A stretch of DNA of 15,296 nt from Trichodesmium sp. MO_231.B1 (GTDB lineage: Bacteria; Cyanobacteriota; Cyanobacteriia; Cyanobacteriales; Microcoleaceae), in assembly GCA_030064815.1 (NCBI GenBank), contig JASJEJ010000100.1, forward strand, positions 1-15,296, written 5' to 3'. Within the stretch, counting starts at the first letter, position 1. Each line of letters starts with the position of its first letter. The translations under genes were made by a program, and so were the position numbers. Below are positions 3,728-6,450 of this stretch, piece after piece. The notes beneath the pieces were generated by a model, which had not been told where the DNA came from, made no database searches, and saw only the letters and a program-made list of their open reading frames with translations.

Positions 3728-3748
3728 AGGAGTCAGGAGTCAGGACTC
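3728..3748. repeat. Tandem heptamer AGGAGTC x3 (third copy AGGACTC), 35 bp upstream of the MVP start
   Basis: Direct reading: aggagtcaggagtcaggactc. The same heptamer recurs at 6437-6450 downstream of the MVP gene. Confidence 0.6.
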
Positions 3749-3782
3749 TCAGATTTATACTCAGTTACAAAACAATTAAACT

Positions 3783-6380
3783 ATGAGTAAGAAAGAAAGT
3801 ACTATAGAATATCCAATTAAAATAGAGAACAATGGTATAATTCGTCTCAAGCCACAACAGTATATTCATGTTCTTGACAATAATACTGGTGTCACTAGAC
3901 TAGAAATCGGCCCTCAAACCATTACCCTGGGAGATGCAGAAAGGTTAGTATTACAACCAAAACTGACAATTGTAGTTCCACCTCGCCATTATTGTGTAGT
4001 CGCTAACCCCGTATTAAGAGATAGTGATGGTCAACTTGTGGTCGATGAATATGGTCAAATTAGACTCAAATATGGCGATCGCGAAATTCGCTTTGCTCAA
4101 GACCCTTTCCCACTATATCCAGGAGAAATACTCGAAGAAGATGTTACTCAACTACAGGTAGTTGAGACAAACCAAGCACTACGACTCAAAGCAATACGAG
4201 ATTTTACCGATACAGTCACTCTTGATGGAGAGTCTCAAACTGTCATTCGTACTACAGGGGATGAATGGTTATTTGAGGGGCCGGGAACTTACACCCCAAG
4301 GGTAGAAGTTGAAGTTATAGATATAGTTACTGCTAAAATAATTAAACCTAACCAAGCCTTACGACTCCTGGCAAGACAAAATTGTATAGACCGTCAAGGT
4401 AATAGACGTAGAGCTGGGGAAGAATGGTTGGTCAGGGAAGAAGGTGCTTATTTGCCTGGAGTAGATGAAGAAATTGTCGATACTATTAATGCCTATGTAT
4501 TAACCGAACTCCAAGCACTACACTTAAAAGCAAAACGCACCTTCACTGATATTTTTGGTCAGCAACGCAAAGCGGGAGATGAATGGTTAGTTACTTTTGC
4601 AGATGCTGAAATTCATATTCCCGACGTTTATGAAGAAGTAGTGGGGGAAGTCGAAATTACTACTTTGAGCGATCGCGAATGGTGTATAGTTACTAATCCT
4701 ATAGACGCAGATGGTAAACCGCAGTGGGGTATGAAAGAAGTGCGTCAGGGCAGAACATCTTTCTTTTTACACCCAGGAGAAGATTTAGAAACAGGAATTA
4801 AAAAGGTCTATATTCTTGGTGAACAAGAAGCACTTCTACTCAGAGCTGAGGAAACTTTCACCGAGGGAACAGGAGCAAACGTTATTACTCGGCAACCAGG
4901 AGATTTATGGATGATTACTGGGCCAAGAGATTATATTCCCCCAGTGGAATTAGAAGTATTAGAAAAACGTCAGGCTATTCCCCTAGACAAAAATGAAGGT
5001 ATATATGTACGGGATGTTCAAAGTGGGGAACTAAAATTAGTTAGTGGACCTCAAGCTTATATGTTATCTCCTTATGAGGAACTTTGGGAAAAAGAACTGC
5101 CAGAAGTTGTAGAAAAATTATTATTGCAAAAAGTCGATCCTATTGCCGAGCGTAGTCTCCGGGAAGAGGAGTTAACACAAGTTCAACGAGACCCCACCCG
5201 GGCAGTGGTGTTTCATGTACCTCAAAATGCTATAGTTCAAATCCATGATTACAAAAATCGTACCGCCAGAACAGTATTAGGGCCTGACTTGGTGATGTTA
5301 GGGCCGGATGAAGCGTTTACAGTATTGAGTTTGTCTGGGGGTAAACCGAAGCAACCAAATATGATTAAGTCTTTGGCTTTGTTATTGGGGCCGGATTTTA
5401 TGACGGATATTTTTACTGTGGAAACTTCAGATCATGCCAGGCTACAGTTACAGTTATCTTATAATTGGTATTTTGATGTAGAAAGAGATAATCCCCAGGC
5501 AGCAGCAAGATTATTTCAAGTGCCTGATTTTGTGGGAGATACTTGTAAGGCGATCGCTTCTCGGGTGCGGGGGGCAGTTGCTGGGCAAAAGTTTGATGAG
5601 TTTCACCGTAACTCGGCTCGCATTATTCGAGAGGCTGTGTTTGGCCTGGATGAGGAAGGGAGAATTAGAGATGAATTTAGATTTAGAGTAAATAATTTGG
5701 TGGTGACTAATATTGATATTCAGTCGGTGGAGCCAGTTGATGAGGAGACGTTGAAGAGTTTACAAAAGTCGGTACAACTGGCTATTCAAATTACGACTGA
5801 TGCTCAGGAAGCTGCTGCTCGTCAAGATGCTGAAAGAATTGAACAGGAGGCTAAGGCGAGGTTGGAGCGACAGATAATTGTAGATAGGGGTGCTTCTGAA
5901 GTAGAGCGGAAACAATTATTGGAGTTGGAGGCGGAAAATGCTGCTATTCAGGCGACGGGTGTAGCTGGTGCTGAGGCTAGGGCAAAAGCGGAAGCTGCTC
6001 AGATTCAAGGACAGTTGGCGGTAAATTTGGCACAGCAGGAAGTAGAAGCAGCACGGATTCGCCATGAGGCGGAAATGGCTCAGTTGAGGGCGCGTCAGGA
6101 GGCTGAGTTGGCTCATCAGCAGGCACTAAATAGTTTGGAGATTGAGAAGACAAGGGAAATGGCTGAAATTACTGCTACTGAGTTTCAGCAAAAAGTGGAG
6201 GCTTTGGGGGCTGAGACAATTCGGGCGATCGCTCAAGCTGGTCCGGAAATGCAGGCGAGGTTGTTAGAGGGGCTTGGTCTTCAAAGTGTTTTGATTACTG
6301 ATGGTAAGAGTCCAATCAATCTTTTTGGTACGGCTAATGGGTTGATTAATCCGATAATGCCACAAGTAAATAATGAATAA
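3783..6380 (+). CDS. mvp: Major vault protein (MVP) homolog, apparently full length: N-terminal tandem ~53-aa vault repeats, shoulder domain, Ala/Glu/Arg-rich cap-helix, short cap-ring
   Basis: 865-aa ORF. Internal ~53-aa modules are visible by eye: [14 protein letters not shown]...[20 protein letters not shown]; [17 protein letters not shown]...[22 protein letters not shown]; [14 protein letters not shown]...[24 protein letters not shown]; [16 protein letters not shown]...[22 protein letters not shown]. Several long stretches match metazoan MVP as I recall it: [122 protein letters not shown]. Confidence 0.88.
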
Positions 6381-6408
6381 TTAATAATTAATAATTAATA
6401 ATTAGGGT
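6381..6408. repeat. Heptamer tandem repeat (TTAATAA)x4, beginning 1 bp after the MVP stop codon
   Basis: Direct reading: ttaataattaataattaataattaataatta. Confidence 0.7.
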
Positions 6409-6436
6409 TTGCTGAAAAAGTTTTATGGGTGAGGGT

Positions 6437-6450
6437 AGGAGTCAGGAGTC
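6437..6450. repeat. Tandem heptamer AGGAGTC x2, same unit and orientation as at 3728-3748
   Basis: Direct reading: gtaggagtcaggagtcttatg. Confidence 0.5.

Follow-up and report, generated by a model that had tools for sequence, protein, structure and literature searches.

A cyanobacterial major vault protein gene is probably an old resident of a conserved Okeania/Trichodesmium locus, with flanking heptamer repeats unrelated to its arrival

Genes for major vault protein (MVP), the protein of the eukaryotic vault, have also been described in cyanobacteria, and their presence there has been interpreted in more than one way: contamination or transfer from a eukaryote was considered for the cyanobacterial copies (Daly et al. 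2013, PMC3762200), and a transfer from a cyanobacterium to eukaryotes has been proposed as well (Sokolskyi 2019, bioRxiv 10.1101/872010). Genes of cyanobacteria commonly carry the octamer GCGATCGC, called highly iterated palindrome 1 (HIP1), whose coding-region sites are retained from genome to genome more than conservation of codons would account for (Xu, Lawrence and Durand 2018, PMC5861425). Here we analyse an intact MVP gene within a 15,296-bp stretch (33.8% GC) of Trichodesmium sp. MO_231.B1, contig JASJEJ010000100.1, hereafter the window, which corresponds to positions 6219-21514 of the ~22.6 kb of source contig (L001) that served as compositional background. L001 is part of a 47.8-kb metagenome scaffold (ENA ERZ23487464) that encodes the exact protein. 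A sequence-only reading of the window had proposed that the gene resided in its host long enough to acquire the host's oligonucleotide signature, and that identical heptamer arrays on its two flanks might mark the boundaries of an ancient insertion. Our analysis points, with a probability of roughly 85%, to an MVP gene of long standing, passed on by vertical descent at a conserved chromosomal locus of the Okeania/Trichodesmium clade, next to heptamers that are unrelated to its arrival.

The product of the gene carries every domain by which the MVP family is recognised. In Pfam searches, Vault (four stretches, E=1.9e-68), Vault_2 (4e-37), Vault_3 (8e-32) and Vault_4 (4e-17) were found in its N-terminal half, followed by MVP_shoulder (PF11978, residues 536-653, E=8.6e-54), a long cap-helix and a C-terminal tail. 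Solved eukaryotic MVP chains align end to end with residues 17-856 (E=1.5e-294); in comparisons with the rat and human proteins (PDB 4V60, 4HL8, 7PKZ), residues 17-855 pair with residues 5-849 at E~1e-292 to 1e-294, and all repeat, shoulder and cap-helix domains are present in the window protein. Unlike its eukaryotic counterpart, the protein belongs to a bacterial host, and the window gave no sign of the vault partners TEP1, vPARP or vault RNA: the adjacent WD40 kinase matched TEP1 propeller models only in the way of any generic WD40 protein, and an Rfam scan of the window returned no match. The same full-length Pfam architecture is found in the described cyanobacterial MVPs of Moorena/Lyngbya majuscula (F4Y3B4), Allocoleopsis (Microcoleus) sp. 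PCC 7113 (K9WB38) and Oscillatoria acuminata (K9TKX8), and orthologues from Okeania, Moorena, Symploca, Allocoleopsis and other genera are 75-85% identical to the window protein. What sets it apart from other cyanobacterial MVPs is an AT-rich genome (~33% GC), a distinct codon regime in the 3′ part of the gene and decay of the gene in sister lineages; the latter two find no mention in the cited literature on cyanobacterial MVPs.

A total of 2729 homologues were detected, the best 120 of which share 75-85% identity with the window protein and, wherever their source is named, are almost all cyanobacterial (including Okeania, Xenococcaceae, Microseira, Aerosakkonema, Allocoleopsis, Symploca, Planktothricoides, Nostoc, Oxynema). 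Their usual NCBI name is 'colicin uptake protein', owing to the TolA-like cap-helix. A scan of species-representative genomes yielded 57 MVP loci, copies from Thiomargarita, Parabeggiatoa and Chloroflexi metagenome-assembled genomes (67-72% identity) among them, and in a neighbour-joining tree of MVP sequences recognised taxa cluster (Nostocales, Laspinema, Symploca/Caldora, Microcoleus), with the window sequence placed with Okeania. The gene is a further member of a known, highly conserved cyanobacterial MVP family, one found widely among the filamentous forms of the phylum. Outside the phylum, MVP genes at 67-72% identity to the cyanobacterial ones occur in large sulfur bacteria (Thiotrichaceae, Thiomargarita and Parabeggiatoa; L033, L038, L042, L054) and in filamentous Chloroflexi (L034-L036, L046, L055), and those examined contain a single HIP1 site in total. 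Such copies imply transfer between phyla among filamentous and gliding bacteria, with HIP1 marks lost or absent outside cyanobacteria.

The setting of the gene is shared by its relatives. The kinase-WD40 gene upstream is syntenic in Okeania, Trichodesmium and loci L064, L065, L050 and L037, and the order kinase-WD40, MVP, Tmemb14 (minus strand), DUF815, TerB, 4HBT is kept in Okeania SIO3I5 (L049), Okeania hirsuta (L053) and Okeania SIO2G4 (L061), with a locus nucleotide identity of 85-94% to SIO3I5 and O. hirsuta. The L050 lineage is distant, with just 61-76% identity between its neighbour proteins and those of the window, and with a DUF815 that stands equally far from Okeania, Trichodesmium and Kamptonema; there, kinase-WD40 and MVP are followed in the same order by DUF815, TerB, 4HBT and ApbA, and in L037, a close relative of L050, kinase-WD40 lies directly upstream of MVP. 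The matching gene and context recur in assemblies made independently of one another, some of them from isolates, and on multi-megabase contigs from many cyanobacteria. At the nucleotide level the nearest MVP loci are those of Okeania SIO2F4 (L057, 95%), O. hirsuta and SIO2G4 (91-94%) and SIO3I5 (89%), and outside Okeania MVP drops to ~80% amino-acid identity or less. Compared with SIO3I5, the ratio of non-synonymous to synonymous substitution rates (dN/dS) is 0.13 for the window MVP against 0.35-0.39 for the kinase and DUF815 genes. The window gene is intact and under purifying selection, a sign of a protein in use and no more than that; the predicted protein would, we infer, still assemble into vault-like shells.

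In sister lineages the gene is found in several states of decay. In L064, the closest MVP-less relative, whose kinase gene is 92.8% identical to that of the window at the nucleotide level, the locus has, in order, the kinase stop codon, ~160 bp of AATAATT/GGATAAT-type heptamers, a remnant of MVP (L064 8057-8437) and 139 bp leading to Tmemb14. The remnant corresponds to window 6190-6404 (residues ~805-863) at 84% identity and is damaged by an in-frame stop codon and a 10-bp duplication, and it retains an unbroken HIP1 octamer where the window has the one at 6225; such a decayed 3′ remnant means that the MVP-less state of L064 arose by deletion of the sequence equivalent to window ~3490-6189. 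The left edge of that deletion lies at the heptamer arrays that directly follow the kinase-WD40 stop, so that arrays of this kind may promote deletions. The oceanic Trichodesmium loci (L059/L060) keep the neighbours without MVP, with 740 bp between the kinase gene and Tmemb14, and L065 resembles them in having the same neighbours and no MVP. No remnant of MVP was detected when Trichodesmium (L059/L060), L065 and L063 were searched for one, so that loss in these lineages is deduced from phylogenetic position.

Further states are found among the congeners that carry the gene. A 930-bp internal deletion (window 5074-6003, residues 433-740) is common to the pseudogenes of O. hirsuta (L053 10001-11742), SIO2G4 (L061 7051-8691) and a third assembly (L062 1-1092); the SIO2G4 copy has four in-frame stop codons besides, and that of O. 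hirsuta an extra insert of ~108 bp. In SIO2F4 the gene is broken near window ~4795 by a retroelement (L057 1252-2557) whose open reading frames (ORFs) encode RVT_1 and then the C-terminal part of RVT_1 fused to a Cas12f1-like TNB domain. At the equivalent of ~4795, SIO3I5 carries a 147-bp in-frame insert (L049 11017-11163) with partly duplicated flanking codons, which suggests that a retroelement left its footprint there or that the position is a hot spot for insertions. Taken together with the conserved locus, these states suggest that MVP was present ancestrally at this site and was then lost repeatedly in sister lineages.

The HIP1 sites bear on how the gene's history can be read. The four perfect copies that the sequence-only reading had placed in MVP, encoding GDR, SDR and AIA, were all recovered at their positions (Table 1), as was the first of two in neighbouring genes; the second begins at 8637 rather than 8636. 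These six copies compare with 0.01 expected from dinucleotide-preserving shuffles, a ~600-fold excess, and recoding MVP with the neighbours' codon usage predicted 0.03 HIP1 sites against the 4 observed. We then placed every HIP1 site of 49 intact MVP orthologues on the window protein and compared HIP1-bearing hosts (at least 0.2 HIP1/kb in the flanks) with HIP1-free ones (two Oscillatoria, Thiomargarita and relatives, and Chloroflexi). Where the local peptide is compatible with the octamer, it was encoded as HIP1 at residue 98 in 11/17 HIP1-bearing hosts versus 0/2 HIP1-free hosts, at residue 296 in 20/34 versus 0/3, at residue 590 in 33/38 versus 0/5 and at residue 815 in 30/30 versus 1/4, which sums to 94/119 compatible sites versus 1/14. 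HIP1 usage in MVP therefore tracks the host, the same peptides notwithstanding. The two HIP1-free Oscillatoria, O. princeps and sp. PCC 10802 (L011, L019), have no HIP1 in ~22 kb each, and where other MVP genes have HIP1, theirs show versions with a single mismatch (GCGATTGC, GGCGATCGG), as would fit ancestral sites decaying once the lineage had lost HIP1 maintenance. As a class, HIP1 sites are methylated at their inner GATC and CGATCG by orphan methyltransferases, DmtA among them; no methyltransferase gene was found in the window, and the dmtA gene of T. erythraeum has been described as interrupted by a retroelement (Elhai 2015, PMC4390886).

Within the host, MVP is saturated with HIP1 as resident genes are. 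Compatible AIA or xDR tripeptides on the source contig are written as HIP1 in 4/4 cases in MVP and 4/8 in the neighbouring genes; across other ORFs of the clade (25,277 residues) the figure is 32/52 (AIA 19/24, xDR 13/28), which does not differ from the 4/4 of MVP (Fisher p=0.29). The sequence-only reading had staked its claim on a background not far denser in HIP1 than the gene, and locally the background is sparser: the 20 kb of flanking DNA have 0.25 sites per kb and MVP has 1.5. This surplus is accounted for by a greater supply of compatible tripeptides (4.6 per 1000 residues in MVP versus 2.1 in other genes, a factor of 2.2) and by the non-coding DNA that the flanks contain. The exact octamer, the AIA/xDR codon contexts and the conservation of orthologous sites across genera are those of cyanobacterial HIP1 in general, with nothing unusual about them. 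The claim that a host signature was acquired by residence accordingly holds in one half only: saturation is native-like, but since the four sites are recurrent positions in many genera (HIP1 in 11 to 33 of the 49 orthologues), they are a family-wide conserved feature and not demonstrably acquired in this host. HIP1 shows the gene to belong to the pool of cyanobacterial genes that bear the octamer and cannot by itself exclude transfer between cyanobacteria, an exclusion that comes instead from synteny and the deletion remnant.

The heptamer arrays have a different history from the gene they flank. AGGAGTC does stand in tandem on both sides of MVP in one orientation, although the third upstream unit, which had been counted with the others, is imperfect, and a third array is indeed fused to the MVP stop codon. 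Among relatives, however, the arrays do not travel with the gene. The upstream AGGAGTC array occurs only in the window and in SIO2F4, its place being taken by a 41-bp spacer in O. hirsuta and by a different, 1.1-kb spacer in SIO3I5; the downstream array is shared by the window and SIO3I5, with (GGGAGTA)n in its stead in O. hirsuta. Neither array is present in L064, and the kinase-Tmemb14 spacer of Trichodesmium (L059/L060) has no AGGAGTC array. The other arrays of the locus vary likewise: the (AATAATT)n array is longer in SIO3I5, replaced by (GGGAGTA)n in O. hirsuta and kept beside the remnant in L064, and at the kinase stop, L064, SIO3I5 and O. hirsuta have arrays of AATAATT/GGATAAT type and not (GAAGAAG)n. 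The downstream AGGAGTC pair is, moreover, the tail of a ~45-nt dispersed element with further copies in SIO3I5 (L049 14034-14090, plus strand; 9964-9919, minus strand) and a partial copy in L063; the element is absent at the MVP locus of O. hirsuta and L064. The 14-mer AGGAGTCAGGAGTC also appears at unrelated places in O. hirsuta (L053), SIO2G4 (L061), L006 and L047.

Chance pairing of such arrays is not rare. In 171 kb of DNA from the clade we counted 110 perfect heptamer arrays in 40 families, among which AGGAGTC ranks fourth with 6 arrays, and two arrays drawn at random belong to one family with P=0.06. The window itself contains a second pair of one family, (ACTGATA)3 at 6704-6723 and (CAGTTAT)5 at 9507-9543, which lie in opposite orientation on the two sides of the Tmemb14-DUF815-TerB block and belong to the commonest family of the clade, AACTGAT; such pairs are therefore commonplace. 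Because the AGGAGTC arrays vary among congeners that carry MVP, recur elsewhere and miss the edges of the L064 deletion, they are not insertion boundaries, and the alternative that the sequence-only reading had itself allowed, local spread of short tandemly repeated repetitive (STRR) sequences, is the one that stands. The arrays are ordinary STRR-type intergenic filler that turns over faster than species diverge. Like STRR heptamers in general they are tandem, mostly intergenic, rapidly renewed and of many families. The classical STRR units reportedly were CCCCAGT, TTGGTCA and CAACAGT, described from Calothrix and Nostoc by Mazel and co-workers in 1990; unlike these STRR1-3 units, the unit here is AGGAGTC, and one of its arrays sits inside a ~45-nt dispersed element.

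Base composition is where the gene departs most from its surroundings. Greater GC richness had been noticed in its 3′ third and attributed to amino-acid composition. The 3′ part is GC-richer, with a peak of 0.52, but the whole gene (0.43) lies above its surroundings (~0.32), partly through first codon positions (GC 0.60). Third positions are AT-rich, as stated, with a GC content (GC3) of 0.316, though the neighbouring genes are lower still (0.15-0.29), and the value exceeds the 0.219 expected from the protein's own amino acids and the neighbours' codon usage (z=6.9). This excess grows along the gene, from z=2.6 in codons 1-520 to 4.3 in the shoulder and 6.5 in the cap-helix. The 5′ 57% of the gene is near host codon usage (GC3 0.27 versus 0.22), whereas the 3′ part has a GC3 of 0.40 versus the 0.215 that amino acids would give with the neighbours' codon usage (z=6.5), so that the explanation by amino-acid composition fails and an abrupt change in synonymous codons takes its place. 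Change-point analysis located it at codon 499 for the frequency of G at third positions (G3) and at codon 502 for that of C (C3), that is, at nucleotides 5280-5289, with log-likelihood ratios of 36.7 and 17.6. Across the switch, G3 rises from 0.12 to 0.37 and C3 falls from 0.14 to 0.03; at four-fold degenerate sites, G goes from 0.10 to 0.34 and C from 0.20 to 0.03 (against 13 neighbouring genes, chi2=92, p=8e-20). Third positions past the switch are thus G/T-rich and nearly C-free.

Among the 49 orthologues, this regime is seen besides the window only in SIO3I5 (L049) and in the syntenic L050/L037 lineage; across the other 45 no consistent rise is seen, with a mean difference of 0.011 and 23/49 positive. 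The O. hirsuta-type pseudogene remnant of SIO2G4 (L061) has the same regime, and it reappears, with G3 up to 0.43 and C3 down to 0.01, at the 3′ ends of a transglutaminase-like gene upstream of the window (L001 1-999) and of ruvB (L049 19187-20416, minus strand). When 51 non-MVP ORFs of the regime-bearing lineages were collapsed into 21 gene families, second halves of genes differed from first halves by +0.032 in G3 (Wilcoxon p=0.04), -0.027 in C3 (p=0.05) and -0.033 in A3, the corresponding frequency of A (p=0.03), while 290 ORFs from other MVP-bearing hosts showed no trend between first and last fifths (p=0.2). Over 45 hosts the GC3 of MVP follows that of the flanking ORFs (r=0.75, slope 0.74), and the window lineage is a positive outlier on account of its 3′ regime.

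Several candidate causes of the switch were tried and rejected. In addition to amino-acid composition, which cannot account for a switch seen at four-fold sites alone, next-base context was set aside with G/(A+G) at 0.52-0.70 for any next base versus a background of 0.19-0.28; no overlapping or antisense ORF longer than 66 residues exists in the 3′ part; messenger RNA structure is unremarkable (z-scores of -0.42 and +0.17 in the 3′ and 5′ kilobases); and a chimera of two donors is at odds with the ranking of 48 orthologues by identity, which agrees between the N- and C-terminal parts and shows no mosaic at the protein level. We regard the codon switch as a real, lineage-specific feature. It might be the extreme of a lineage-specific 5′-to-3′ gradient in the Okeania/Trichodesmium clade and the L050 lineage, an idea that we hold to be possible but doubtful. 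Its G/T-rich, C-poor direction is that which deamination of a single-stranded coding strand (A to G, C to T) would leave, and a regime common to lineages whose neighbour proteins are only distantly similar suggests that something keeps producing or preserving the pattern. Candidates that may do so are deamination of the single-stranded non-template strand in R-loops or under heavy transcription toward gene ends, 3′-biased gene conversion mediated by complementary DNA in retroelement-rich genomes, and selection on codon choice.

Our preferred explanation of the locus runs as follows. A phylum-wide process that favours the HIP1 octamer wherever the protein allows would install or keep the sites in MVP, HIP1-free hosts being left without them; the flanking AGGAGTC arrays are STRR-type repeats, one of them the tail of a small dispersed element; and purifying selection holds the gene in this host while sister lineages lose it by deletion, stop codons and retroelement insertion. 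Some observations weigh against it. Presence and absence are patchy in the clade, and with Trichodesmium, L065 and L063 lacking both the gene and a detectable remnant, the pattern needs several independent losses. Synonymous divergence (dS) from SIO3I5 is 0.46 in the 5′ part of MVP, about twice the 0.18-0.21 of the flanking genes, and the window is 94% identical to the MVP pseudogene of O. hirsuta while only 85% identical to its kinase gene, which together make allelic exchange within the genus likely. The gene is also compositionally unlike its neighbours in GC, GC3 and HIP1 density alike, and by composition alone it looks as if it had come from a cyanobacterium with a higher GC content and many HIP1 sites, the comparison being with a host background of ~20 kb.

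The same features speak for a competing account in which MVP, or an allele of it, arrived fairly recently from such a donor by homologous recombination through the flanks and brought the donor's HIP1 sites and GC with it. That account would also fit the four HIP1 sites being identical in position to those of many other genera, and similarity ranks that differ between gene and flanks among Okeania. We nevertheless consider it improbable. The nearest MVPs are those of Okeania, other lineages being more remote; the identical locus exists in the distant L050 lineage, and MVP-less L064 retains the deletion remnant. Taken as the mark of a foreign island, composition points both ways: GC3 is raised, the 5′ part is close to host codon usage, and the 3′ regime also turns up where other resident genes end. 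Since the G3-rich, C3-poor 3′ part is unlike that of almost all other orthologues, no sampled lineage outside the syntenic group fits as donor, and no N- to C-terminal mosaic is visible in the protein. Exchange within the genus is compatible with the old-resident explanation. Far less probable still is an MVP cassette whose insertion left the AGGAGTC arrays behind as direct repeats, in the form of a target-site duplication or remnants of attachment sites. One 14-mer repeated in a single orientation to either side of MVP, 2.7 kb apart, is what such an event would produce, but O. hirsuta lacks both arrays and SIO3I5 the upstream one, and both carry MVP at this locus; the segment missing from L064, ~3490 to ~6189, does not extend between the two arrays; the downstream copy is part of a dispersed element with other copies; and the heptamer family is common enough for coincidence at ~0.06 per array pair. 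A scan of the window found no transfer RNA or transfer-messenger RNA gene near MVP, and a Pfam scan of ten window proteins, with the 116-residue ORF at 14931-15281 lying outside it, found no integrase or recombinase. The hardest to credit is eukaryotic contamination or an assembly chimera, a thought suggested by the metagenomic origin of the contig and by the early literature on cyanobacterial MVPs cited above: the gene with its context in independent assemblies excludes it, and internal HIP1 sites, the absence of introns and contiguity with cyanobacterial neighbours on both sides speak against it too. On this point the sequence-only reading was right, as it was in arguing against a very recent arrival, for which the conserved locus order, the L064 remnant and a dN/dS of 0.13 leave little room.

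For the debate on vault origins, the locus offers a gene that is native to, and anciently resident in, cyanobacteria, as indicated by conserved context, HIP1 orthology across genera, third positions that track the host and purifying selection. It also indicates that MVP is dispensable in some marine lineages, and the intact, interrupted, pseudogenised, remnant-only and absent states within one clade provide natural comparison strains for the function of bacterial vault proteins. That series of loss states in the Okeania/Trichodesmium clade, together with the compositional discontinuity inside the gene, is what we regard as modestly new. Two cautions for the reading of cyanobacterial sequence follow: HIP1 in a gene attests membership of the HIP1-bearing cyanobacterial pool and not residence time in a host, and matching STRR heptamers should not be taken for insertion scars. 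Should the codon switch prove general, it would give a new handle on strand-asymmetric mutation or on selection at synonymous sites in these genomes.

Table 1. Features of the window around the MVP gene (window coordinates)
Feature	Position	Strand	Remarks
Ser/Thr protein kinase-WD40 gene	1109-3484	+	Pfam Pkinase, WD40; conserved upstream neighbour
(GAAGAAG)n array	3490-3563	+	directly after the kinase-WD40 stop; left edge of the segment missing from L064
Upstream AGGAGTC array	3728-3748	+	AGGAGTC x2 (3728-3741) and imperfect AGGACTC
MVP gene	3783-6380	+	single uninterrupted ORF, 865 aa, no introns
HIP1 no. 1	4075-4082		GGC GAT CGC, Gly98-Asp-Arg; HIP1 here in 11/49 orthologues
HIP1 no. 2	4669-4676		AGC GAT CGC, Ser296-Asp-Arg; HIP1 here in 20/49 orthologues
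3′ 43% of MVP with distinct synonymous-site regime	5280-6380	+	change-point analysis
HIP1 no. 3	5550-5557		GCG ATC GCT, Ala590-Ile-Ala; HIP1 here in 33/49 orthologues
HIP1 no. 4	6225-6232		GCG ATC GCT, Ala815-Ile-Ala; HIP1 here in 31/49 orthologues
(AATAATT)5.1 array	6369-6404	+	holds the last four codons (incl. N-N-E) and TAA stop of MVP
Copy of ~45-nt dispersed element	6402-6450	+	TAGGGTTTGCTGAAAAAGT..TATGGGTGAGGGT-AGGAGTCAGGAG; tail is AGGAGTC x2
Downstream AGGAGTC array	6437-6450	+	AGGAGTC x2; same orientation as upstream array
Tmemb_14 family gene	6723-7061	-	convergent, conserved downstream neighbour of MVP
HIP1 in Tmemb_14 gene	7027-7034		encodes AIA
DUF815 AAA+ ATPase gene	7553-8860	+	synteny anchor
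HIP1 in DUF815 gene	8637-8644		encodes SDR

Elsewhere in the window, the ketopantoate reductase gene (ApbA/PanE) is split between ORFs at 12151-12438 (95 aa, with a precomputed ApbA match) and 12643-13122; Trichodesmium, L064, L065 and L063 have it as one gene of 314-326 aa, and the split is probably a frameshift or pseudogene in this metagenome-assembled genome, or an assembly error. Between the AMP-binding and MenC-like genes, a 135-bp tandem repeat is present in 2.5 copies at 14959-15296, where it runs off the end of the window, and in about eight copies in L064 (18567-19651). The Tmemb_14 gene is flanked by a 93-nt inverted repeat (6477-6569 and 7213-7305, 82% complementary) with relatives in SIO3I5 (L049 ~20972, ~22554 and 12896-13004), which looks like a dispersed repeat of the kind of a miniature inverted-repeat transposable element.

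Promoter and terminator scans gave nothing above shuffle expectation. Between the convergent MVP and Tmemb_14 genes, a loop of 32 nt is enclosed by the arms of a perfect inverted repeat of 15 nt, AGAAACCGGGTTTAT / ATAAACCCGGTTTCT (6611-6672); a T-run follows on the minus strand, so that the repeat may be the Tmemb_14 terminator. The 320-bp spacer around it differs from that of SIO3I5 by few substitutions and one indel of ~21 nt, and appears better conserved than the adjoining coding sequence (~89%).

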